Virus record (IMG/VR): IMGVR_UViG_3300032007_000001
Reading direction: 5' to 3' (one strand)
Length of the DNA stretch: 64,000 nt
Source of the DNA: a virus
Taxonomy: Duplodnaviria > Caudoviricetes
The position numbers and the translations under genes were made by a program. Shown piece after piece: positions 44,899-64,000 of the stretch (its first letter is position 1; every line of letters begins with the position of its first letter). The notes beneath the pieces were generated by a model. The model had not been told where the DNA came from. It did no database searches and saw only the letters and a program-made list of their open reading frames with translations.

Positions 44899-45279
44899 AT
44901 GTCTATAAACCTAAATGATATATTGACATACGGTGGCGCTAAATTTCAAGTCGTAAAAGCAGCTACATCAAAAGATATAAATACATTAAACAATAAAATA
45001 AACGAACTTTCAACAATTTTTAGAAAAAACTCCACAGCATATGCTGTTGGGTCTATTGTTTTTTCTGCTTCGCTTCCTTCTGGTTTCGTATTAGAATGTA
45101 CGACTGCTGGAACAACAGCATCAACCGAACCAACAATTAATAATGTTACTGAAGGAAATACAATATCTGACGGAACAGTTACATGGACATATAGATGTTT
45201 ACTTATGGCGAAAACAGCATTAGCAATTAACGGGAATGTTCTTGTTTTTAGTAATGGTACAAGAATTTGGGTAGAGTGA
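44899..45279 (+). CDS. Short tail-fibre adaptor-like protein
   Basis: Shared N-terminal peptide plus RKNSTAY.VG...LECTTAGTT..TEP...DGTVTW domain also at the start of 47142 and 52067. Confidence 0.7.
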   Translation: MSINLNDILTYGGAKFQVVKAATSKDINTLNNKINELSTIFRKNSTAYAVGSIVFSASLPSGFVLECTTAGTTASTEPTINNVTEGNTISDGTVTWTYRCLLMAKTALAINGNVLVFSNGTRIWVE

Positions 45280-45285
45280 TATATC

Positions 45286-46050
45286 ATGGCAATACTAGTC
45301 AAACAACTTCATGTATTAAATCAAAATTCAGAACAAGAAGATTTTGAAATTGCAACCACAGCTGAGGAAACTGGAAATACAGAAAATTTTATGACTTGTA
45401 TGGTTGACGGTGAAACGGTATATGCTGGGCTTGATACAGATACTACAGTTTCTAGTTTCCTAGTTCAAAAAGCTGGAATAAATTATGCAGTCAAACATAC
45501 TGGAACTCCTCCATATGTTCCTGGAAGCGAATCTTATACTGTAGCAGGAACCTATACATTTACTGCGCCTTATACTGCTGATTATACAATAGAAATAGCC
45601 GGTGGCGGTGGTGGTGGAGGAGGAACGTGTACTTGGACTGGTCAAAGCTTAAAATCTGGAAGCAGTTCAGCTTATGGAGGAACTGGTGGAAATGGAGCAT
45701 TAGAAACGATAGTTGCTTCTTTGATTGCTGAAGAAACGTATTCTGTTGTTGTCGGCGCTGGTGGGTCAAGTGGGTCTAATTATTCTTGGAACGAACGTAT
45801 TACGAAGGTTGGACAATACTCCGCATCTGCTGGTTCTGGACAACAAGGAGGTACATCTTCTTTTGATAACACAACGGCTATTGGCGGTTTGGGTGGTGGC
45901 GGCGGAGGATTAACAATTCTTGCTGTCCAACTGCAATATTACGGTAGAGCAGCAACTACTGGTTCAAATGGAACTTCTTACGGCAATGGTGGTCAAGGAG
46001 GAGCTGGAGCCACAAATGGCAGTCCAGGCTGGGTAACAATAACATGGTGA
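45286..46050 (+). CDS. Glycine-rich tail fibre / receptor-binding protein
   Basis: AGTYTFTAP...IAGGGGGGGG...VVVGAGG...GSPGWVTITW glycine-rich domain. Confidence 0.75.
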   Translation: MAILVKQLHVLNQNSEQEDFEIATTAEETGNTENFMTCMVDGETVYAGLDTDTTVSSFLVQKAGINYAVKHTGTPPYVPGSESYTVAGTYTFTAPYTADYTIEIAGGGGGGGGTCTWTGQSLKSGSSSAYGGTGGNGALETIVASLIAEETYSVVVGAGGSSGSNYSWNERITKVGQYSASAGSGQQGGTSSFDNTTAIGGLGGGGGGLTILAVQLQYYGRAATTGSNGTSYGNGGQGGAGATNGSPGWVTITW

Positions 46051-47141: not shown

Positions 47142-49097
47142 ATGACAATGAACATAAATGACACAATCAATTATGGGAATGCAAAATTTAAGATAGTAAA
47201 AAATGCAACGAGCAATGATATTGATTTAATTAACAATAAAATTAATTCAATTGACAAAAATAGAAAAAACTCTACTACATATAGTGTCGGCGACGTTGTA
47301 TTTTGTTCATCTCTTCCATCTAGTCTTGTATTAGAATGTACTATAGCTGGTACAACATCATCAACAGAACCTTCTTTTTCAGGAGCCGAAGAAAATAATA
47401 CTATAACTGATGGTACTGTAATATGGACATATCGTGGTCTTCTTTCTGGTTCTGGTGGAAATCTTAATATAGTAGAACTTTCTCAATCTGAATATAACCA
47501 ACTTTCTCAATCAGAGAAAAAAGATACATCAAAGATTTACCTTATCACAGATGCAAATCCTTCTGATACTAATCAAACAAATGGAGTTCCTTTAGGAGCC
47601 ATAGTTCCTTATGTGGCAGAAACACAGAATCCACCAGCTGGATTCTTATTCTGTGATGGTTCAGCTGTAAGTCGTTTAATTTACTCAGACTTGTTCGGGG
47701 CTATCGGCATAACATACGGGACTGGTGACGGTTCAACAACATTTAACTTACCAGATTTGACTGGCGGCGAATTCCTTGAAGGTTCTGATACAGCAGGCAC
47801 TAGCCATGAGGCGGGATTGCCTAATATTGAGGGCAGTTTTCTCCCTGGTTCTGATGTTGACGCTGGGTTCGGCCTCAATTCAATAAGCAATGGAGCATTC
47901 TCTTATAATCAGTTAAGTGGTACTGGAAACTTTCTTACTAATGGTGGGGGAGGTCAGATTCGAGGGTCTTTAGACTTCGATGCTTCTGACAGTAACGCAA
48001 TCTATGGTAACTCCGATACCGTCCAGCCCAAATCCCTAACAGTTCGTTACCTTATAAAATATCTACCAAATGTAATCGACTCTGAAATATCAGCAGCTGA
48101 TGCAGCTTCTCAGGCAAAAGCGGCGGCCCAAGCAGCTGAAGCTTATGCAGGTTCAGCAGGAATACCTATTGGAACTTTATTTCCATTTGCAGCTAATACA
48201 CAGGACCCGCCGACAGGATATCTGTTCTGCGACGGTTCGGCGGTTTCACGCACGATGTACCCCGACCTGTTCAGTGTGCTTGGCACAACTTGGGGCGATG
48301 GTGACGGCAGTACGACGTTCAATCTGCCACGTTCAGAAGACCTCGTTTTGCAGGGCGCGTCATCGACGAATCCTGTGGGAACGTATAAGGAGGCGGGGTT
48401 GCCTAATATTACGGGAAGCACTGTGGCTCATGCTGATTCTGCGTCTTCTAAACCAGCACCCACTGGAGCTTTTTATACAGGTGGCACCGCTACTGTTTCA
48501 ACTTATGGTTCAGATGCTTCTCGTGGGAAACAAATGTTTGATGCTTCTCGTTGTTCTGCAATCTACGGGGCGTCCGATACCGTCCAGCCTCCTGCCGCTT
48601 GCGTGAAATTCATCATCAAAGCCTACGACGGTGTAACGCCGGGGAGTGCGGGGATTGATTTGTCGCAGTATGCTTCCGAGCTTGGCAACAAGGCTTCCCG
48701 TGGATTGGACAATCTGACCGACGCAGGAGAAGACCATTTTCTTGGTGACGATAATTTCTGCATTATCTATCCAAATGGTGGGACTGCGGCGAATCCTGCG
48801 AATATCGCAGTAAATAACATTTACTTGGAAACGAATCCGTTTCCGAACTATCACATAGCGACGATTTTGCAGATTTTTTACAATAGTAAATGGTTTGAAA
48901 CGGGGTGGGTGTATTCTTCCTCCAACGGCAGTTCTTACGGCACAAGGGTTGAGGAATGCAACGGACAAATCCGCATTGTAACGGGAAATCAGTCTTTAAC
49001 ACGTGGGCGTTCAAACAATGGAACGGATGATGATTTAGGAAGTTCGTCTGCTCCCTGCCGCGTAAAAGTTTGGAAAATTGGCAAAATCCAATCATAA
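47142..49097 (+). CDS. Tail fibre protein with two collar domains
   Basis: Two P.G.I.P...CDGSAVSR..Y.DLF...GDGSTTFNLP collars, two GLPNI...FDAS tips, C-terminal IIYPNGG...PCRVKVWKIGK. Confidence 0.88.
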   Translation: MTMNINDTINYGNAKFKIVKNATSNDIDLINNKINSIDKNRKNSTTYSVGDVVFCSSLPSSLVLECTIAGTTSSTEPSFSGAEENNTITDGTVIWTYRGLLSGSGGNLNIVELSQSEYNQLSQSEKKDTSKIYLITDANPSDTNQTNGVPLGAIVPYVAETQNPPAGFLFCDGSAVSRLIYSDLFGAIGITYGTGDGSTTFNLPDLTGGEFLEGSDTAGTSHEAGLPNIEGSFLPGSDVDAGFGLNSISNGAFSYNQLSGTGNFLTNGGGGQIRGSLDFDASDSNAIYGNSDTVQPKSLTVRYLIKYLPNVIDSEISAADAASQAKAAAQAAEAYAGSAGIPIGTLFPFAANTQDPPTGYLFCDGSAVSRTMYPDLFSVLGTTWGDGDGSTTFNLPRSEDLVLQGASSTNPVGTYKEAGLPNITGSTVAHADSASSKPAPTGAFYTGGTATVSTYGSDASRGKQMFDASRCSAIYGASDTVQPPAACVKFIIKAYDGVTPGSAGIDLSQYASELGNKASRGLDNLTDAGEDHFLGDDNFCIIYPNGGTAANPANIAVNNIYLETNPFPNYHIATILQIFYNSKWFETGWVYSSSNGSSYGTRVEECNGQIRIVTGNQSLTRGRSNNGTDDDLGSSSAPCRVKVWKIGKIQS

Positions 49098-49130
49098 GAA
49101 ATAAATATATCAATAAGGAGGTATCCAATA

Positions 49131-51011
49131 ATGCCTAAGTTAATGTATAACGACAATGAAATAGGCGGTATTGGTAGCAACTCAGATTCTTTACCAGTTG
49201 GTTCTATTATACCTTTTGGTTCTCTTACATCTATCCCAAAAGGTTTTTTATCTTGTGACGGAACAGCTGTATCAAGAGAAACTTATAACGAATTATTTGA
49301 TATTATAGGTACTCAATACGGAGAAGGAAATGGGACTACTACATTCAATTTACCTGATTTAGTAGATGCTGCTATCATGAATGGGGACTATGATAAGACA
49401 GAATTTATTACAGCTGGAAGCGACACATTTACCGCTCCTAAGACTGGCTACTACAAAATCACCGTAAAAGGTGCTGGTGGCGGCGGATGGGGAGGCAAGT
49501 CTGAAAGTGGAGGATTTTATTACGGAGGACTTGGAGGAGCAGAGGGTGGAACAACAATAGCTTATGAATACATGACTTTGGGTGACATTGCTGTTATAAT
49601 CATCGGTGCTGGAGGAACAGGAGGACCAGCAGGAGCAGGAAGTGCTCCAAGTGCCGGAGAAGATAGTTCCGTTACTGTTAATCATAATACATATACTGGC
49701 GGTGGTGGTTCTATTAACGCTAGAGGCTTTACTTACGGTGGTAGTGGAACGGTCCCGGGAGAATCTGGGCCAGCTGGTCAACGCGCCTATAACTTATATG
49801 CATATGGTGGTTGTGGCGGTGGTAACGGTGGCGGGGCTGGTTCTTATGACACAGTAGCGAATGATGGAATAAATGGCGGCGGTGGCGGCGGAGGTGGAGC
49901 TTCTGGAAGTTCTTATACTTTCGCAGGAGGCAAAGGCGGCGACGGCTTCGCCACTTTCGAATACATCGGAACTGTCTCAAACTACGTCATCAAAGCTTAT
50001 CTCTCCTCAATCTCAATCGGAGACACACTCGTCACTCTCACACAAGCCCAATACGATGCCTTATCCACTAACGAAAAGAACGATGCACGCAAGTTGTATG
50101 TGATAACGGATTCTGGAGATGCTGCTAATATAGCAGACAACATGCCAGTAGGACTTATCTTACCTTATGCTGCTAATGCTGATAATCCAATAGGATTTCT
50201 TACTTGCGACGGTTCAGCGGTGAGTAGAACGATGTACCCAGACCTCTTCGCTTTAATCGGCACAACGTATGGCGAGGGTGATGGGGAAACTACATTTAAT
50301 TTGCCAGACTTAGGGTTTATTGATGGAGAAGAAGCCGCTATCTATGGGGACGGGTATGCGCTCGGTTTGGAATCTAATTTACCGTCTAAAGCTGGACTTA
50401 ACCTGAATTATGGTAGCAATACCTATTTGTATTGGAATCAAAACTCGTCTGATTTAGCTGAAGGAAGAATGGGTCTGGCTGTAAAGAATTCTACTGATTC
50501 TCCATCAGGCTCTCATATTTATACCGACCTTACTTCTGCGGTTTCCAATAAAGCCCGTTATATCATCAAAGCCTTCAACGGAGCTACAAAGAATAGCGCT
50601 CTTGTTGATATGACGCAGGTTGGTAATGCTTTGAATAGCAAGTTTGATTTTGGTTCTGACTTTACCATCATTTATCCGAATGGTGGAACAGCAGAAATTC
50701 CGGCTAATGTAACAAAAAATAGCAGGTATGTTATGGACAATCCTTTTCCTGGATATATTGTAAATTGCATAGCTGAAGTTTTGTATAATGGAGAATGGGG
50801 AGACCCAAAGTTTGCATCTGATACAAACAATGAACGCGGTGTGATAGCTACGCAATTTAATGATAATACGATAGTGGTTCAAACGGCGCAAATATATGTA
50901 TTCACTCAATCAGGAAATTCCGGTAATCCCTTTGGATTTTCTGGGTCAGCTCAAACAACACTTCCATGTAGAGTCAAAGTCTGGAAAATCGGCAAAATCC
51001 CAACAACCTAA
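49131..51011 (+). CDS. Tail fibre protein: two collar domains plus glycine-rich domain
   Basis: Collar, Gly-rich GAGGGG domain, LTQAQYDALS motif, second collar, IIYPNGG...PCRVKVWKIGK. Confidence 0.85.
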   Translation: MPKLMYNDNEIGGIGSNSDSLPVGSIIPFGSLTSIPKGFLSCDGTAVSRETYNELFDIIGTQYGEGNGTTTFNLPDLVDAAIMNGDYDKTEFITAGSDTFTAPKTGYYKITVKGAGGGGWGGKSESGGFYYGGLGGAEGGTTIAYEYMTLGDIAVIIIGAGGTGGPAGAGSAPSAGEDSSVTVNHNTYTGGGGSINARGFTYGGSGTVPGESGPAGQRAYNLYAYGGCGGGNGGGAGSYDTVANDGINGGGGGGGGASGSSYTFAGGKGGDGFATFEYIGTVSNYVIKAYLSSISIGDTLVTLTQAQYDALSTNEKNDARKLYVITDSGDAANIADNMPVGLILPYAANADNPIGFLTCDGSAVSRTMYPDLFALIGTTYGEGDGETTFNLPDLGFIDGEEAAIYGDGYALGLESNLPSKAGLNLNYGSNTYLYWNQNSSDLAEGRMGLAVKNSTDSPSGSHIYTDLTSAVSNKARYIIKAFNGATKNSALVDMTQVGNALNSKFDFGSDFTIIYPNGGTAEIPANVTKNSRYVMDNPFPGYIVNCIAEVLYNGEWGDPKFASDTNNERGVIATQFNDNTIVVQTAQIYVFTQSGNSGNPFGFSGSAQTTLPCRVKVWKIGKIPTT

Positions 51012-51034
51012 TATAAAAGGAGGTCAAAACAGTC

Positions 51035-52045
51035 ATGTCTAAAATAATATATAAATCAGAAATGGTTGGTGGACAAGCTATTGGAATCCCAATAGGGTCT
51101 ATCATACCTTTTTCATCAAGCTCAACTCTCCCCAATGGCTTCCTTGCTTGTGAGGGACAGGCTATCTCAAGAACCATGTATAAAGATTTATTCCAAGTCA
51201 TCGGGACTATTTATGGTGAAGGTGATGGAAACACTACTTTTAATATTCCTAATCTTTCAAGTGGTGAGTTCCTTGAGGGTTCTACTGTTGCTGGTGTGAG
51301 TAAGAGCGCAGGGTTACCGAATATTGAAGGTAGCGCACGCAATAGTGGCTTTGGTGTTATCGGAAATGCAAATGGAGATTCAACAGGGGCTTTTACAGCA
51401 GGACCTTCACCATTGCTTTCTTATCCAAGCGGTGGTAGCGGTAATCTATATTCGTTGACTCTTGACGCTTCTCGTTCTTCCGAAATCTATGGCGCGTCAG
51501 ACACTGTCCAACCTAAATCTGTAACGGTTCATTACATAATCAAAGCCTTCGATGACATAACTCCTAATAGTGCTTTATTAGACGTGACTCAGTATGCTTC
51601 TGATCTCGCTAACAGAGCTTCAAGGTCATTAGATAGCCTAACTCCAGAAGGTGAAGACCACTTCCTCGAACAGGACTTTACCATCATCTATCCGAACGGT
51701 GGGAGCGAGGGAAACCCTGCAAATGTAACAACTAATAGCCGATACGTTGAAACAAATCCTTTCCCTGGATATGCTATCGCATGTGTGCTTGAGGTCAAAT
51801 ATAACAACGAATGGGGACGTCCAGGTAGCCTTATTTCTGAATGGGGTAATGGTTCACAGAGAAACTTTTATCGTGGTGTGGACGCTATCCAGTTAAATGA
51901 CAATAATATTATCATACAAACCGCAACTGATAGTATTATGTCTCCTGCGAATCATGGGCTTGCCCCCTTTAATAATTCTGACCATGTTACTACATTACCT
52001 TGTCGCGTTAAGGTATGGAAAATCGGGAAAGTTGTAAGGACATGA
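51035..52045 (+). CDS. Tail fibre protein with one collar domain
   Basis: Collar, GLPNI...LDAS tip, IIYPNGG...PCRVKVWKIGK. Confidence 0.85.
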   Translation: MSKIIYKSEMVGGQAIGIPIGSIIPFSSSSTLPNGFLACEGQAISRTMYKDLFQVIGTIYGEGDGNTTFNIPNLSSGEFLEGSTVAGVSKSAGLPNIEGSARNSGFGVIGNANGDSTGAFTAGPSPLLSYPSGGSGNLYSLTLDASRSSEIYGASDTVQPKSVTVHYIIKAFDDITPNSALLDVTQYASDLANRASRSLDSLTPEGEDHFLEQDFTIIYPNGGSEGNPANVTTNSRYVETNPFPGYAIACVLEVKYNNEWGRPGSLISEWGNGSQRNFYRGVDAIQLNDNNIIIQTATDSIMSPANHGLAPFNNSDHVTTLPCRVKVWKIGKVVRT

Positions 52046-52066
52046 AAATATATATGGTGATACAAT

Positions 52067-53824
52067 ATGACTATTAGTATAAATGATATAATCAATTATG
52101 GAAATGCAAAATTCAAAGTAGTAAAAACAGCTACAAGTAACGATATAAATTTTGTTGTTGATAGAATCAATGCAATCGACAAAAACAGAAAAAATTCAAC
52201 AGTATATTCATTAGGAGATATTGCTTTCTCGCCAAACCTACCGTCCTCGCTGTTGCTTGAATGCACGACAGCCGGAACGACGGCAGCAACAGAGCCAGAT
52301 TTTTCAGACGCAGCAGAATGTGGTACGGTCAACGACGGAACGGCTGTCTGGACATACAAGAAACTTCTGAGCAGTGGTGGTAGCGCAGGCGGCGACGGTA
52401 TCCCGCTCGCGGCAATCATTCCGTGGGATAGCGACAGCAACGTAATTCCGCCCGGATTCTTGGAGTGTAACGGTCAAGCTGTATCGCGTGCCGATTACGC
52501 TGACCTTTTTGGCGTAATCGGCACGAAGTACGGTAGCGGTGACGGCTTGACCACGTTCAATGTTCCCGATTACACGGACGGCGTATTCCTTGAAGGTTCG
52601 GACACTGCGGGAACGGAACACGCTCCGGGTTTGCCGAATATTGAAGGCGAGTTTGCCAGTGTTTTTTATAACAATTATGTATATGGAACAGGGGCATTTG
52701 TGAAAGGAGAAGTACACGGCAATCTCGGCGGCGGCGGCGTAGACGGATATAAAATGTCATTTGATGCTTCACAGTCTAACGCCATCTATGGCAACAGCGA
52801 TACCGTCCAGCCGAAATCCTCGACCACGCGATACCTCATAAAATTCATTCCGTCTGTCCCCGAATCCGAGGCAAGCGCGGCGGCATCTGCATCTGTGGCA
52901 CAGGCGGCGGCACAGGCGGCTGAATCCTACGCTGGGAGCGCTGGTATTCCTGTGAGCACTATGTTCCCGTATGCGGCAAACTCTGTCGACCCGCCAATGG
53001 GTTATCTGTTCTGCGATGGTAGCGCTGTTAGCCGTACCATGTACCCTGATTTGTTTGATGCCATTGGAACGACATACGGCACAGGCGACGGCTCTACGAC
53101 GTTTAATCTCCCGACAGCAAACGACGCGAGATATCTAGTCGGTTCGAATGTAGCTGGTACGATGCTGGCGGCAGGCGTGCCGAATATCGATGGGAATTTG
53201 GCAATCGACGCAAATATGCTTCACCCAACAAATAGTCTATGTGGTGCTTTTTATTCCGAAAGTACGCCTTCACAGGGAACGTGGTCTGCACCAACATCTT
53301 ACAGCGGAAATAGTTATTCTGTAAAATTTGACGCCTCTCAATCCAACGCCATTTACGGCAACAGCGACACTGTAACGCCGAAGTCTTTGTCTACGCGCTA
53401 TATCATCAAGGCGTATGACGGCGTAACTCCAGGTAGTGCTGGCATTGACTTGACGCATTATGCGTCTGCACTGAACTGCAAAGCAGACCGAGATTTGAGT
53501 AATCTTAGTAATGCTGGTAAGGCAAAAATTTCTTCTGATAATTTTCTTCCGGCGTATAATTCAATAATATCCATTACACAACAACAAATACTTGATGGAT
53601 ATACTGCACCTACGAATGGGTTTGTTATTTTATCCTTTTCATTATACGACAATGCTATATTAACTATTGATAACATACCTATTGGCATTGGATATACATA
53701 CAATGGACAAGAAGTTGACCCATCCACTTTTTTAATTTCCGAAGGAGAAGTTATTAAAGCGTCCGCAATATCTCTGTTTAGGTCTGCAAATTTTGTTCCT
53801 ATGAAAAGCGAGGTAAGTGTCTGA
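52067..53824 (+). CDS. Tail fibre protein with two collar domains (paralogue of 47142)
   Basis: Shared N-terminus, two collars and tips, different C-terminal domain (YTAPTNG...FVPMK). Confidence 0.88.
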   Translation: MTISINDIINYGNAKFKVVKTATSNDINFVVDRINAIDKNRKNSTVYSLGDIAFSPNLPSSLLLECTTAGTTAATEPDFSDAAECGTVNDGTAVWTYKKLLSSGGSAGGDGIPLAAIIPWDSDSNVIPPGFLECNGQAVSRADYADLFGVIGTKYGSGDGLTTFNVPDYTDGVFLEGSDTAGTEHAPGLPNIEGEFASVFYNNYVYGTGAFVKGEVHGNLGGGGVDGYKMSFDASQSNAIYGNSDTVQPKSSTTRYLIKFIPSVPESEASAAASASVAQAAAQAAESYAGSAGIPVSTMFPYAANSVDPPMGYLFCDGSAVSRTMYPDLFDAIGTTYGTGDGSTTFNLPTANDARYLVGSNVAGTMLAAGVPNIDGNLAIDANMLHPTNSLCGAFYSESTPSQGTWSAPTSYSGNSYSVKFDASQSNAIYGNSDTVTPKSLSTRYIIKAYDGVTPGSAGIDLTHYASALNCKADRDLSNLSNAGKAKISSDNFLPAYNSIISITQQQILDGYTAPTNGFVILSFSLYDNAILTIDNIPIGIGYTYNGQEVDPSTFLISEGEVIKASAISLFRSANFVPMKSEVSV

Positions 53825-55014: not shown

Positions 55015-55042
55015 AAAGAGTGGAGAGATTTCTCCACTCTTT
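55015..55042. terminator. Intrinsic terminator between convergent genes
   Basis: AAAGAGTGGAGA / TCTCCACTCTTT. Confidence 0.75.
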
Positions 55043-55860: not shown

Positions 55861-56682
55861 TCAATAATGTATATTGCTTGATTTATTGTTATCTTTATAT
55901 TGAAATACTGGTCTAAAAGACGATAAATAATCGAATTTTACAGTTGTTGATTGTTGATGTTTAGCATGATTAGATGAAGAACTAGCTGTCCAATTATAAG
56001 TTAATGTGTATGTATCTTTTAATTTCGCAATTGTTTCTTTTTTAGTACAGTTTGTTAAAAAAGATTTTTGCTGATATTCATAATACTTAAATTCCATGTT
56101 TGTAATGTTCTTTACCCAAAAATCTCCAATTATGTTAATTCCTAATAATAGCTGTTTGGCTGGATATGAATATGTGCATATATTACTGTTAATATTATCT
56201 TGTAAACAATTTGCAATAACATTAATAGTATATTCATATGATGTTGTATTTTCTTTAGAAACATTCCCATTACAAAGACTATTTCCGTATTCCGGATATT
56301 TAGCAATGATACTATTTTTATTTTTCATAATATTCCATCCAGCCGATGTCATTGGATTTACAACATTATCGTTTCCTCTTCTATACATACCAAAAGCACA
56401 GTAAATTGAATGTGATGGCGTAATAGCAAAATTCCAAACAGCATCGTTGTATTTTGTTATTGACCCGTTTAATGTACTATTTATTAAATATTTTTCTAAT
56501 TCATCTTTAGATAAAATTCTAACGTTTATTTGATTTACTGAAAAAGTGTCTTCGTCACTATCAGCTTCTAAAAGTGTATCTAAGGCGTTTTGTATATTTG
56601 GATTAGATGTGTTATATCCATTAGAAGATAAGATATCTAAGATTTGTGTTTTAACTTCATTAATTGTAGAAATAGGAATCAC
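55861..56682 (-). CDS. Variable-core paralogue 5 (RILS/NSTLNG...FRPVF family)
   Basis: VRILSKDELEKYLINSTLNGSI...AVW and SFRPVFQYKDNNKSSNIHY. Confidence 0.75.
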   Translation of the reverse strand: MIPISTINEVKTQILDILSSNGYNTSNPNIQNALDTLLEADSDEDTFSVNQINVRILSKDELEKYLINSTLNGSITKYNDAVWNFAITPSHSIYCAFGMYRRGNDNVVNPMTSAGWNIMKNKNSIIAKYPEYGNSLCNGNVSKENTTSYEYTINVIANCLQDNINSNICTYSYPAKQLLLGINIIGDFWVKNITNMEFKYYEYQQKSFLTNCTKKETIAKLKDTYTLTYNWTASSSSNHAKHQQSTTVKFDYLSSFRPVFQYKDNNKSSNIHY

Positions 56683-56692
56683 CTACTTAAAT

Positions 56693-57358
56693 TTAATAAT
56701 ATATATTTGTAGACTTTTTATTATCTGCGAAATTAAAAACTGGTCTAAATGAAAGATTTATGTTAGCTGTAACGATAGTATAGTAATCTCCCCATTTTCC
56801 TCGCGCATATACTTGTGCCGCTTCTGCATTTACATTCAATGTTTTGTCTGCGTATTGAGTTACAGACTTTGTAGCAATATTACCTGATGATAAATAAGAC
56901 CCTTGACTTGCACTACTATAACATTTCAGAAGTATGTTTCTTATTATTGAATATTTGAATTGTTTATTTTGGTTATGAGATGATAATTCTCCATACATTT
57001 CAATTGTATATCTAGCATAATGAAGATAAGTAGACTGGTCAACATAATTAATAGCGTATGTGATTGATGTGTCTTGACTATATCCTGGATTTGATTGTCA
57101 AGCACCGCATGCACTATATGTATTTGGTTTATCATCATAATGTCACACATTAATATTTGTAGCACTAATACTTCCGTCTAATGTACTATTTTTTATAAAT
57201 TTGTCATATTCTAAATTAGACAAGGTTCTAACGCTAATAGAACTTTTTTTAATGGCAATATCATTTTTTTGCAAATCGGTCAATTGGTTTTTTAACGATG
57301 AATTTAAGTCAGAATTAATAGGCCGAGTATATAATTCATCTGAAATATAATGTGACAT
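56693..57358 (-). pseudogene. Variable-core paralogue 4, interrupted by two in-frame TGA codons
   Basis: Single frame of 222 codons; TGA at 57143-57145 (aligned with W of paralogues) and 57098-57100; ends SFRPVFNFADNKKSTNIYY. Confidence 0.75.
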
Positions 57359-57370
57359 ATTGACCTTTCA

Positions 57371-58084
57371 TTATGAAAAAATATTAGTAGACTTATTGTT
57401 ATCCACATATAAAAATGCTGGTCTAAAAGAATTATGGATATTATAAGTGTGAGTTATTGTCCATTGGTTATGACCATTATTATATACATTGGTTGGTCCA
57501 TATTGATTAGAAAACGTTGCGATTGATTTACTTATATTTTGCAATTTAGAAAAAGTATGAAAAAAAGTATATGTGCTATAGTCGTAATAGCCGTAAGAAC
57601 CCTGATATGTAAATACAAAATCCGTAACCTGTTCTATTGGAAAATATGCTATACCCGTGTTAGATGTATTATTTGAAAGAATTTCACTATATATGGTAGT
57701 TGATGGAATTGTCATTTTTATACCATTTCCAGTTGTATCTCTCAATACAGAACTAACAGGATAATGTAATTTTGATGCTATACTTGCATTACAATCATTC
57801 CAATGATTCTGACTTGCATAAGCATAATGTAAGCCTCCAGCAAGCCCTTGGTAATGCCACACATTTATATTTTTCTTTGTTACAGAACCATTAAGCGTGC
57901 TATTTACTATATATTTATCATATTCGCTTAAAGATAAAATTCTAACAAAAATTGAATTATAATTAAGACTTATTTCATCACTGGTTTGAGAATTTACGAT
58001 TAAATCTCTGGATTGTTGAAATTCTTCAAGTGTATTCGCATTTATCAGTTGATTATATAATTCATTTGAAATAACATAAGACAT
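57371..58084 (-). CDS. Variable-core paralogue 3
   Basis: VRILSLSEYDKYIVNSTLNGSV...NVWHY and SFRPAFLYVDNNKSTNIFS; ATG 58084 after AGGTG. Confidence 0.75.
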   Translation of the reverse strand: MSYVISNELYNQLINANTLEEFQQSRDLIVNSQTSDEISLNYNSIFVRILSLSEYDKYIVNSTLNGSVTKKNINVWHYQGLAGGLHYAYASQNHWNDCNASIASKLHYPVSSVLRDTTGNGIKMTIPSTTIYSEILSNNTSNTGIAYFPIEQVTDFVFTYQGSYGYYDYSTYTFFHTFSKLQNISKSIATFSNQYGPTNVYNNGHNQWTITHTYNIHNSFRPAFLYVDNNKSTNIFS

Positions 58085-58089
58085 ACATT

Positions 58090-58911
58090 TCACCTAAAAA
58101 TATTATCTGATTTATTGTTATCCTTAAAGTTGAAAACCGGACGGAAAGACGGCATATATCTGATATCATAATTATAGTTAAGTGGATAATGTGAATAAGA
58201 ATAATAAGGCTCAATATAAAAATTATATCTTTTAGCTAAAACAGAATTTTCATTTGTTTTATTAGTAAGTATTATAACTTCCTTATCAGTAAGTTTATAA
58301 TAAAATCCACTTAAATTTAACTTTGTATTCTCATCTGCTCCTCCGACGCCATATACAAATTCAAAATCATAAGTATTGTCTCCACCTACACTATTTTGCA
58401 ACAATGTATTATTTTGTAATAAACTTGTGTAAATTATAATATCAGAAATTACATTATAATCAGATATATAACCATACCTTCCATAATCAACCTGATAACG
58501 TGTTCCCCCTATTTCTGGATTACATACGAGAACCTGTTGATTTACATGCGATAATGCTATTTTAGAGTCAAAGGGGAATTTTACAATATAATTGTTGTTA
58601 TTACACACTCCGCCTTGTTGTTTTGCATTTGACTTGCGTGAAAGTTGGAAAAAAGCATAAAAAACACCCTTAATTTTACCAGTATACTGATAATGAAAAA
58701 CTTCGTTGTTACCAGCTAGAATAGAGCCGTTTAATGTGCTATTAAATATATATTTTTCATATTCTTCTTTAGATAATATTCTTATAAGAATTTTATTGTT
58801 TAAATTCTTATTATCTACATTAGAATTATTATTTAATATATCTAATGCTTCTTTAGATATTAAAGAAGCAAGATTATTATATTGTTCATCTGTTAAATTA
58901 ATTGTTTTCAT
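58090..58911 (-). CDS. Variable-core paralogue 2
   Basis: IRILSKEEYEKYIFNSTLNGSI...VFHY and SFRPVFNFKDNNKSDNIFR. Confidence 0.75.
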   Translation of the reverse strand: MKTINLTDEQYNNLASLISKEALDILNNNSNVDNKNLNNKILIRILSKEEYEKYIFNSTLNGSILAGNNEVFHYQYTGKIKGVFYAFFQLSRKSNAKQQGGVCNNNNYIVKFPFDSKIALSHVNQQVLVCNPEIGGTRYQVDYGRYGYISDYNVISDIIIYTSLLQNNTLLQNSVGGDNTYDFEFVYGVGGADENTKLNLSGFYYKLTDKEVIILTNKTNENSVLAKRYNFYIEPYYSYSHYPLNYNYDIRYMPSFRPVFNFKDNNKSDNIFR

Positions 58912-58922
58912 ATTATATCAAC

Positions 58923-59596
58923 TCAATAGCAAATATTTTGAGATTTATTATTATCTTGATAAGTAAAAACTGGACGGAAACCCAATATAATATCATATGT
59001 ATAATAAGGGTCCATATTTAACCCAGTGTATTTTGGTGTTCGTTGATTTAAGTTTTTTATAAAATTTTTATTGGCTTGAAACGAAGTTTCAATATTAACA
59101 CTGTGATATTTGTCTTTACCGTAATAAGTTGGGAAAAAATATCTATAACTGATTTTTTTGTTTTTCTTGATATACAATTATTATTTTCATTATTTTCACT
59201 TAATTCATATATAAATACTAAGTGACCAAAAGCTCCTTTTATATCACTTGTACGTATTCTATAAATATTAGGATTATTATATAATTTACTATTGTGTGCA
59301 TCCTTGTCACCAGTATAGTACCATACAAGTGCTGACGCACCATCTCTATCACAAAAATGAAATACGCTATCGCTTCGTTTGTTTATTGCGCCATTACAAG
59401 TGTTATTCATTAAATATCTATCATATTCACTATTAGATAAAATCCTAATTGCGAATATATTATTATTTAATTTTTCATTATTGTTCTCTTTAAAAGAAGC
59501 AATAAATAAAGTTTTACTTTCTTCATTAGAAAATGAAGAAAGTAATTGGTTATATGTTTCGTTTGAAATGTTTGCCGTATACGACACAATCATCAC
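58923..59596 (-). pseudogene. Variable-core paralogue 1, split by a single-base frameshift
   Basis: ORF 59057..59596 has IRILSNSEYDRYLMN; overlapping ORF 58923..59177 has GFRPVFTYQDNNKSQNI; total 674 nt, one short of in-frame; A7 and T6 runs in overlap. Confidence 0.7.
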
Positions 59597-62184: not shown

Positions 62185-62487
62185 TTATTCTACTTCACAA
62201 ACAACATCATTAATTTCCAATTTATCTGCTTCTATCCACTGCGGAATTCTTACGTTGTTATCAAAATCATAACTTTTGATTGCTAAAATTTTATGGTCTT
62301 TCGTAATGCCATTTATTTTTTTATCTTCAAATTCAAAACTTAATAATTCTTCGTCAACATCATATACAAATTTATTGATTACTTCATGCAAACAATTATC
62401 ACTAGCATAAACATAATCACCAATCTTTATATCTTTTAATTTATTTTTTCCATCTAAAGTTCTAACAATATTATTACCACATATACA
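62185..62487 (-). other. Split intein N-fragment (IntN, 100 aa)
   Basis: Starts with Cys1 (CICGNNIVRT), IKIGDYV, block B TKDH, WIEADKLEINDVV, then stop. Confidence 0.93.
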
Positions 62488-63687
62488 CCCACGACCTGGG
62501 CCGTTAGCCATTTTTGCTTTGTATCTTATGAACGAAATGATAGAATCATACAATATAAAATACGTTTCAAATCCCATATCTTGTATAACTTTCATTTCAT
62601 GCATTGCGCGCATTCTATCTTTTTTAGATTGGCAATTTTTTCTTGTTAGACCATTCAAAAAAAGATATGTAAGATATTTTGTTTTTTCCAAATCTTTTTC
62701 ATTAATTGATTTAGATAATTCTTTCCAATCATTAAAAGCGTCATCATCTTTTGGTATCTTAACGCTTGGTAAATAATGTTTATCTGAAGAAAATTCAGTC
62801 ATACATTGTTTGGCTATATTTTCTGTATTTTCTACAGCTTCTAATATAGCTTTTTGGTCCAATTTTTCATGACCGTCTCTCTTAAATGCTTCCAATACTT
62901 CTTCTTTGGACATTATATAATAAGTATTGCCACCATAAGTCCAACGTTCTGGATTTGACATTTTGTCTTTACTTTGCATGCATAAAAGAACATCATGTGC
63001 TTCTTTATTTTCTTTTACAAGATAATGTGCGTCTGTTGTTGCTACCAATGGAATCCCCATTTCTTTTGAAAGAGAAATCAAAACTTCATTAACTTTCGCT
63101 TGGTCTTCCATTGCAGTTGGCTGTATCTCTAAATAAAAATTCTCATGAAATAATTTATTATAATAAGCTATCCATTTTTTAGCAGATTCTATATCATCTT
63201 TTTTTATACATTGTGGTATGCGACCAGCAACACATGCAGAAGTTGCAATTAAATTATCAGTTCCAACTTCTTCTAAACATTTATCATCAATTCTTGGCTT
63301 ATAGTAAAAACCTTTTGTAGCACCAAGCGAAGCCAATTTTGAAATTTTCTTATAACCCTCCATATTTTTGGAAAGTATAATCATATGTTCATTTCTATAA
63401 CTTCTATAATGTTCTATATCTTTATTCAACATATCATCAGTGACATAAAATTCCTCACCGACAATAGGCATAACGTTGTTTTTCGTTGCTTCGTTATAAT
63501 GAAACATAACAGCATATAGATTGCCATGGTCTGTTATGCAGCTATACGCTTGATGATTTTCGTTATATTGATTATTAAAATCTTCTGTCAATTTCTTATT
63601 TGTTTTTACCAAGTCTTCAACTCTCAAACACGAATCCAATAGAGAATATTGAGAATGAACATGTAAATTCACAAACATATTTGGCAT
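62185..63687 (-). CDS. dnaE: DNA polymerase III alpha, N-terminal fragment (PHP domain), with C-terminal split-intein N-half
   Basis: LHVHSQYSLLD, ITDHGN, GFYYKPRID, ATTDAHY, MGFETYFIL, ends GPGRG then 100-aa IntN; ATG 63687 after GAGGTG. Confidence 0.95.
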   Translation of the reverse strand: MPNMFVNLHVHSQYSLLDSCLRVEDLVKTNKKLTEDFNNQYNENHQAYSCITDHGNLYAVMFHYNEATKNNVMPIVGEEFYVTDDMLNKDIEHYRSYRNEHMIILSKNMEGYKKISKLASLGATKGFYYKPRIDDKCLEEVGTDNLIATSACVAGRIPQCIKKDDIESAKKWIAYYNKLFHENFYLEIQPTAMEDQAKVNEVLISLSKEMGIPLVATTDAHYLVKENKEAHDVLLCMQSKDKMSNPERWTYGGNTYYIMSKEEVLEAFKRDGHEKLDQKAILEAVENTENIAKQCMTEFSSDKHYLPSVKIPKDDDAFNDWKELSKSINEKDLEKTKYLTYLFLNGLTRKNCQSKKDRMRAMHEMKVIQDMGFETYFILYDSIISFIRYKAKMANGPGRGCICGNNIVRTLDGKNKLKDIKIGDYVYASDNCLHEVINKFVYDVDEELLSFEFEDKKINGITKDHKILAIKSYDFDNNVRIPQWIEADKLEINDVVCEVE

Positions 63688-63734
63688 AAAAACACCTCTG
63701 GATATATTATATAAAATAAAATGGTGATTTTGGA

Positions 63735-64000
63735 ATGATAGATAAAACAAATCATAGCGTTTTTTTAACAAATAAAGATGTTATATTTTATAGTGAATAC
63801 GAATGTAACAACTGCGAAATAAAATACTATAATAATGACTTTGTTACATTCGTTTTCAATGGAATATTTAGATTAAAAGTTATAATAGCTTTTAATTTTA
63901 TAGAACCAAGTATAAATTATAGCCAAAATTCTCCACCTATCATGGAATCTTTCAATAATATTGAAAATTTTAAGTTGTTTTTATCTGAACATATATCTAT
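63735..64000 (+). CDS. Hypothetical protein, 5' part only (runs off window end)
   Basis: ATG 63735 after GGTG; frame open to edge. Confidence 0.5.
   Translation, partial: MIDKTNHSVFLTNKDVIFYSEYECNNCEIKYYNNDFVTFVFNGIFRLKVIIAFNFIEPSINYSQNSPPIMESFNNIENFKLFLSEHIS

Follow-up and report, generated by a model that had tools for sequence, protein, structure and literature searches.

The 64,000-nt stretch of DNA analysed here (the window; bases 225438–289437 of the 504,279-bp virus record IMGVR_UViG_3300032007_000001; G+C 29.7%) carries five related minus-strand genes, A–E, arranged head to tail between positions 55861 and 59596. In the open reading frame (ORF) listing, neighbours are separated by gaps of 9–12 nt or overlap by 4 nt, the start of gene C overlapping the stop of gene B. 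Bare coordinates refer to the window, and those preceded by G000 or G000:C1 refer to the whole phage record. The genes, the two motifs of the member that was modelled and two blocks that span gene junctions are as follows:

58923–59596, minus strand: gene A, a family member with a frame change at a T6 run (59134–59139) followed by CCC
58090–58911, minus strand: gene B, intact, 273 aa, with the longest core (179 aa)
57371–58093, minus strand: gene C, intact, 240 aa (237 aa from the alternative start M4); modelled alone and in complex
56693–57358, minus strand: gene D, 221 codons with two in-frame TGA codons, otherwise intact
55861–56682, minus strand: gene E, intact, 273 aa, with a core of 168 aa
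57848–57946, minus strand: N motif of gene C (aa 50–82, VRILSLSEYDKYIVNSTLNGSVTKKNINVWHYQ), modelled as strand, helix and loop (predicted local distance difference test [pLDDT] 91–94)
57374–57430, minus strand: C motif of gene C (aa 222–240, SFRPAFLYVDNNKSTNIFS), with the predicted terminal strand at aa 220–231
58727–58973, minus strand: A/B junction block, made up of the gene A C motif, an 11-nt spacer, and the gene B leader and N motif, between cores that cannot be aligned
57852–58106, minus strand: B/C junction block, 73% identical over 259 nt to G000:162818–163074

Each gene encodes a leader of ~45 aa, an N motif, a core of 118–179 aa, and a C-terminal motif. The N motif, (V/I)R(I/T)LSxxE(Y/L)xK(Y/F)..N(S/N)T..G(S/A)I....V(W/F), occurs in all five genes and has the fuller form IRILSxxEYxKYIxNSTLNGSIxxxxxNVWH, while the C motif, SFRP(V/A)Fx(Y/F)xDNxKSxNI, lies 3–4 residues before the stop in genes B, C, D and E and in the second frame of gene A (family-wide form (F/Y)RP(V/A/I)FxYxDNxKSxNI). 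The ORF listing and an alignment agreed on this layout, as had been proposed from the letters of the window in an earlier reading (the original prediction).

An iterated hidden Markov model (HMM) search over all ORFs recovered 29 pieces belonging to 26 genes (23 intact, three broken), with the window pieces matching at E-values between 1e-18 and 1e-60. The genes fall into eight clusters at ~28–35, 41–46, 60–63, 108–110, 129, 144, 159–163, and 281–285 kb, the last being the array. A genome-wide count with the motifs had been suggested alongside the original prediction, and the family it disclosed also has relatives in other phages and in prophages; 221 clusters of relatives emerged when 1.84 billion cluster representatives were searched with the family profile. 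Among 5.8 billion proteins, the best full-length relative of gene B outside its own genome was 36% identical, and DNA and protein searches of phage collections with the array and gene B returned no match. A Pfam scan of the window genes assigned no family.

More distant relatives (P0105–P0151) possess an extra conserved N-terminal half (N-half) of ~100 aa, with the consensus MxAPATNGKLC..MxIGDYIxCxY...GYFYFxKVDKGLLxADRxVQxxISWxxLN, and match phrog_30895 (E 1e-17 to 1e-24). The family profile retrieves these fused proteins at E 1e-8 to 1e-17, with the aligned region corresponding to their C-terminal halves (C-halves); when the window genes were compared with phrog_30895 directly by hmmscan, the matches were weak and confined to the N motif (E 2e-4 to 4e-4). 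The window genes have no N-half on the same chain, and in every family copy a new two-helix leader takes its place. One fused form is gp047 of Brevibacillus phage Sundance (NC_028749, 50065–50760), which is annotated as a ‘putative cell adhesion domain protein’ and lies between tail-module genes. Twelve Bacillota genomes carry further fused forms, with prophage relatives in Paenibacillus, Viridibacillus, and Bacillus. These include an N-half and a C-half flanking an F5/8 type C (discoidin) domain, the same two halves flanking a WD40-like propeller, and a complete unit at the end of a 1366-aa protein that has CE2_N repeats (carbohydrate-binding type). As large domains are inserted between them, the halves would be expected to meet in space as one unit.

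An N-half HMM run over the genome matched only two loci, a 607-aa protein with two complete two-half domains (G000:C1:63108–64931) and, preceding it, a gene for the N-half by itself:

G000:61538–62173 (L017:1294–1929), strand not given: constant half, an N-half-only gene of 211 aa with a Thr-rich tail, inside the 60–63 kb cluster

The product of this gene consists of a ~125-aa domain followed by a ~85-aa low-complexity Thr-rich tail that is partly kept in a second phage; a linker, a glycosylation site, or a strand donor are candidate roles for the tail. The second phage is represented by L022, a Logan contig of 23.8 kb that comes from a different sample and on which three family members, the N-half gene, four further members, and a three-domain protein follow each other in the same layout. 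Flanking genes of the two phages are colinear and 55–75% identical, and the N-half is 75–83% identical between them compared to ≤35% for the C-half members, of which there are seven at this locus in L022 and three here. Members this dissimilar and copy numbers this different, beside conserved flanks, indicate that array content is not conserved, in line with the original prediction that it would vary among related phages. A second comparison was sought through the 257-aa neighbour upstream of the array, which has relatives at 85%, 74%, and 54% identity on contigs of 1–2 kb; no syntenic array copy was obtained, as the contig carrying the 85% relative stops short of the array and IMG/VR gave one distant locus only.

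Complex prediction, for which the N-half and gene C of the window were supplied with their own alignments, gave interaction prediction scores from aligned errors (ipSAE) of 0.83, 0.83, and 0.84, compared to 0.00 for the best of three controls. Of 80 solved complexes, 58 reach the score mark applied, as do two of 110 mismatched pairs, a calibration that is only roughly valid for inputs with their own alignments. The runs had at least 76% of contacts in common and a partner pLDDT of at least 63. The predicted interface joins N-half residues 95–113 (the LLIADR..ISW segment) to gene C residues 46–53, 61–81, and 220–231; within the N motif region it is residues 46–53, 61–71, and 75–81 that are predicted to contact the constant half, and the contacts of lowest predicted error link the terminal strand (220–231) to constant-half residues 96–107. 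Searches of the PDB by sequence, using the family profile and the 607-aa two-domain protein, and by fold found no solved relative that the predictor could have remembered. The two conserved motifs are thus predicted to be a docking surface for the constant half, which would explain why the ends of each protein are frozen while the middle varies. The original prediction had treated the same ends as scaffold elements that bracket the ligand site of a lectin-like protein; the models instead point to a half-domain whose ends dock onto a partner.

The array is part of a 26-copy, lineage-specific expansion, and the evidence leans towards its members being variable C-halves that pair with one separately encoded constant half to form a probable host-ligand binder. 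Each gene would encode a short two-helix leader followed by one half, the variable C-terminal one, of a bipartite phage binding domain. In other phages and in Bacillota prophages a single chain carries both halves (PHROG 30895), either within tail modules or as the final part of carbohydrate-binding proteins; this phage encodes the conserved N-half once, as a gene of its own. The strand-helix at the N-end and the FRP strand at the C-end would dock onto the constant half, and the beta core, rich in Tyr, Trp, Asn, Ser, and Thr, would be the exposed variable face that probably binds ligands on the host surface. The repertoire may have grown through ancient duplication and deep divergence, with genes also gained and lost; the junction blocks would have allowed some unequal recombination, and no mutagenic retroelement would be involved. 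A more tentative extension is a non-covalent combinatorial system, in which the one invariant half could combine with any of ~23 germline variable halves, much as a single light chain might serve many heavy chains, to complete a domain that has no solved-structure or Pfam counterpart.

It is rather unlikely that the C-halves are instead self-sufficient small binders that fold and act alone, with the conserved ends as a folding nucleus and the N-half contact as a relic. In an AlphaFold2 model of gene C (136 sequences, pLDDT 74), two leader helices precede a strand at 49–52, a helix at 55–63, a beta-rich body, and a strand at 225–228. The compactness of this monomer, together with the confident ends (N motif pLDDT 91–94), would suit such an autonomous protein, as would the leader that replaces the N-half in all copies and the scatter of clusters far from the N-half gene. 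The second phage has nevertheless kept the N-half-only gene, at 75–83% identity and at the equivalent place in a family cluster; both conserved motifs fall on the predicted interface, and the prophage forms with large inserts show the halves joining as one unit.

Several points weigh against pairing with a constant half as part of a host-binding structure. The heterodimer is a prediction, and its scores express model confidence rather than measurement. Because they resemble the fused form, the two parts of a split domain tend to score well in predictions of this kind, so that a pass indicates complementarity and not present binding. A single constant gene would need strong expression to serve 23 partners, and the N-half gene lies ~220 kb from the array. 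Fold searches of the PDB (Foldseek, VIA wide) and BFVD with both C-half models found nothing above noise. Six of the eight clusters are situated among non-structural genes (phosphoesterase, NrdD, DHH phosphoesterase, TnpB, M48 peptidase), and the strand that carries the array also holds YqeY-like and replication genes; given these neighbours, a virion location is not implied by gene context.

The same gene context raises the alternative that the proteins are intracellular binders for host takeover or counter-defence (decoys or inhibitors, for example) that are not carried on the particle. Most clusters lie among genes of nucleotide metabolism, repair, and mobile elements, the array is co-oriented with the YqeY-like and replication genes, and there was no match to a Pfam signal-peptide or membrane family, no dedicated signal-peptide or transmembrane prediction having been made. 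This alternative is nonetheless considered unlikely. Fused relatives are found in tail modules and linked to carbohydrate-binding or discoidin domains. Behind the N-half cluster come a CBM96 protein and multi-domain proteins that match virion or tail-fibre PHROGs weakly, and the array itself adjoins four tail-collar fibre genes, with a terminator in between. By analogy with these relatives and neighbours, ligand binding and a virion location may be inferred for the split form, and an adhesin is considered the most likely function of the family.

The cores were described in the original prediction as completely different, as rich in Tyr, Asn, Ser, Thr, and Gly, and as interchangeable inserts. 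The composition holds: Y+N+S+T+G account for 44.8% of core residues compared to 30.8% in long ORFs, with Tyr enriched 1.9-fold, Trp 1.8-fold, and Thr, Asn, and Ser 1.4-fold, a make-up typical of binding surfaces. The difference between cores holds in pairwise comparison, as local alignment of the three intact window genes gave z-scores of 0.6, 0.9, and 3.0, and only 55 of 7381 pairs among 122 family cores reached a BLASTP E-value <1e-3. It does not extend to unrelatedness. Core-only profiles built independently from two family halves between which BLASTP detects no pair match each other at 88–89% probability (E 2–3e-6, 39–83 columns), profiles from random family halves at ~92%, and reversed-profile controls at 0.1–0.2%; such profile-level alignment had been named at the outset as an observation that would speak against unrelated cores. 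The family alignment also contains a mid-core motif, E(L/I)xxNNxxN, with a later Lys, common to the family. Three closer pairs (53%, 53%, and 46–48% identity) are similar evenly over N motif, core, and C motif, and in these pairs the leader alone is much more diverged. Taken together, the profile match, the mid-core motif, and this even similarity indicate, at the level of sequence, that the cores are very old, deeply diverged homologues and not foreign cassettes.

These results bear directly on the explanation first put forward for the array, a C-type-lectin/FGE-like scaffold, as in the targets of diversity-generating retroelements (DGRs), whose unrelated inserts would be exchanged through recombination at the motif pair. 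At the nucleotide level, paralogues resemble each other mainly in blocks composed of C motif, spacer, leader, and N motif (~250 nt, 68–73%). The A/B junction block is 73% identical over 256 nt to G000:60715–60965, with 88% identity between its central 93 nt and G000:130242–130334, and the cores on either side do not align; this confinement of similarity, along with array content that is wholly different between related phages, would be expected of cassette exchange. The closer pairs, however, have no breakpoints at the motifs and are even across motifs and core, as expected from duplication and divergence rather than replacement, and identical motif residues share a codon at a frequency of 0.594 compared to 0.569 expected. 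Codon usage at the motifs is therefore at saturation, and the motifs appear to be kept by protein-level selection and not by recent conversion. The constant junction blocks could support occasional unequal exchange, and the history of the family is read, from these comparisons, as duplication, deep divergence, gene gain and loss, and some recombination, rather than replacement by unrelated cassettes. The proposal that the repertoire is maintained without retrohoming was borne out, in that no RVT_1 (reverse transcriptase) match was found in the 504-kb genome and an all-against-all blastn of the clusters gave no near-identical template repeat/variable repeat (TR/VR) pair. A ~48-nt segment (G000:C1:130287–130334) downstream of the solitary member at G000:C1:129579–130286 matches the spacer and opening codons of gene B with 88% identity, and resembles a leftover of a lost adjacent family gene.

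For the scaffold itself, the likeness of the motifs to the C-type-lectin/FGE fold is visible and lacks statistical support. When 31 fused domains were compared with 30 FGE proteins by hhalign, the top and only segment was a 12-column match of lIRxLSxxEf to GfRLpTdAEW at 0.6% probability. PF03781 (FGE-sulfatase) matched one of 136 members, a fused relative, with E 0.021 and 14.9 bits compared to a cut-off of 23.3, and unrelated models matched equally weakly; a Pfam scan of the window genes and the genome matched neither FGE-sulfatase nor Lcl_C (PF07603, DUF1566). In an ESM-Atlas shape search, three of ten rows were FGE-sulfatase clusters (template modelling score 0.28–0.45; residues 46–229, 48–229, and 1–229), and no solved C-type-lectin fold was among the fold-search results. 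An ESM Atlas feature search gave no usable match for gene C and, for the fused relative P0121, unnamed viral clusters only, with DUF6273 at 0.84. Among 224 jumbo phages covered by a published survey, no domains of FGE type (C-type-lectin fold) were reported (PMC7824862). In view of the hhalign probability, the near absence of Pfam matches, the homology of the cores, the even pairs, and the saturated codons, a lectin scaffold with swapped inserts is regarded as improbable. Neither the family (221 clusters of relatives) nor its fused ancestors have a Pfam model or a solved structure.

The nearest known proteins are those of PHROG 30895 (function unknown), which have a homologous C-half, with IR.L(S/T)..(E)W.KYI ... 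VW(H/N) and a terminal (G/S)FRP(V/A).(E/F)Y, and which are found in phage tail modules or carbohydrate-binding contexts. They differ in being single-chain proteins, some with a discoidin or propeller insert, whereas in this phage the C-half stands alone in 26 copies and the N-half is a single separate gene.

A second comparison is with variable proteins of DGRs that have a C-type-lectin fold (Mtd of Bordetella phage BPP-1 and TvpA) and with FGE-sulfatase/DUF1566 domains. In them, as in the present family, a constant frame presents a variable surface rich in Tyr, Asn, and Ser, and the strand-helix R-L-x-x-x-x-E and terminal F-R-P resemble RLPTxxEW and GFR(C/V). The present family differs in having no reverse transcriptase or TR/VR pair, with no significant similarity found in sequence or to solved structures, in drawing germline diversity from many genes rather than one mutable gene, and in a variable part of 90–180 aa instead of a dozen codons. 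Phages Mu (G segment, Gin) and P1 (C segment, Cin) carry invertible tail-fibre segments, and thereby likewise combine one constant part with alternative variable receptor-binding parts stored in the genome. In those phages DNA inversion fuses reading frames and offers two alternatives, whereas here the constant part and the ~23 alternative variable parts are separate polypeptides predicted to join non-covalently, with neither an invertase nor inverted repeats seen at the array. Multi-receptor-binding-protein phages with adaptor-mounted tailspikes (K1-5/SP6, CBA120, and Klebsiella phage PhiK64-1) also encode many alternative host-binding proteins side by side with conserved docking segments; theirs are large trimeric tailspikes with conserved N-terminal anchors, while here a ~230-aa protein bears conserved docking elements at its two ends, by which it is predicted to complete a split domain.

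Three ways are known by which phages broaden or change their host recognition, namely mutagenic retrohoming, DNA inversion, and the carriage of several whole tail fibres. If pairing with a constant half is correct, the array would represent a fourth, in which a binding domain is split, one half is kept constant, and the other is multiplied into dozens of diverged versions; a giant phage would then hold a standing repertoire of surface-binding specificities with neither a mutagenic retroelement nor DNA inversion, and the family might offer a modular scaffold for engineered binders. Since the partners are small (~125 aa, within the 211-aa N-half protein, and ~230 aa), their binding is directly testable in vitro.

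Two of the five array genes appeared switched off in the original prediction, and both breaks were confirmed: a frame change at the T6 run in gene A and two in-frame TGA codons in gene D. The lesion in gene A is a 1-nt loss in the T run; read with X at the break, the gene is 46–48% identical from end to end to the paralogues G000:30689–31369 and 44991–45644, and it terminates on TGA at the normal family end. In gene D the TGA codons (57143–57145, at the conserved Trp of NVWH, and 57098–57100) both occupy Trp positions and account for two of its three Trp codons, though TGA is a stop elsewhere in the genome. G-to-A decay, leaky read-through, and recent exchange with a relative in which TGA encodes Trp are possible causes. 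The phage uses the standard genetic code, with TGA terminating 188 of 602 long ORFs and interrupted frames not in excess. A code in which TGA reads as Trp was rejected on that count, on the rate of ‘long ORF, stop, long ORF’ arrangements, which is alike for all three stops, on the normal use of TGA as the end of gene A, and on the absence of a detected suppressor tRNA. Gene D is likely a pseudogene or expressed only through stop-codon leak.

The array-bearing operon is set off from its neighbours by one further feature:

55015–55042, no strand: terminator-like hairpin of 12 pairs, separating the array-bearing minus-strand operon from convergent plus-strand tail-fibre genes

A scan for sigma-70 promoters gave a signal no higher than in shuffled sequences of this AT-rich DNA. 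Elsewhere in the genome, the phage carries a tmRNA (G000:C1:6105–6468, tag DNDYVAIAA) and 17 tRNAs, and the NrdD gene (anaerobic ribonucleotide reductase, G000:C1:112167–113726) is compatible with an anaerobic host. A TnpB/IS605 OrfB-type gene (OrfB_IS605 and Cas12f1-like TNB, G000:C1:157946–159151) is the immediate upstream neighbour of the largest family cluster, at 159–163 kb. The 607-aa protein is followed (G000:C1:64939–67988) by an RCC1-like protein of 512 aa and the CBM96 protein, an order repeated in L022, and the three may form an adhesion gene set. Within the window, four tail-collar fibre genes (Pfam Collar, two with double Collar domains) stand in succession on the plus strand at 47142–53824, with a G+C of 0.42–0.47 compared to ~0.29 across the remaining window, which could stem from Gly/Ala-rich repeats or a different origin. 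On the minus strand, the ORF at 62185–63771 is DNA polymerase III alpha-like, judged from its translation alone, and its terminal segment, starting GPGRGCICGNN...IKIGDYV, resembles the start of an intein or Hint domain.

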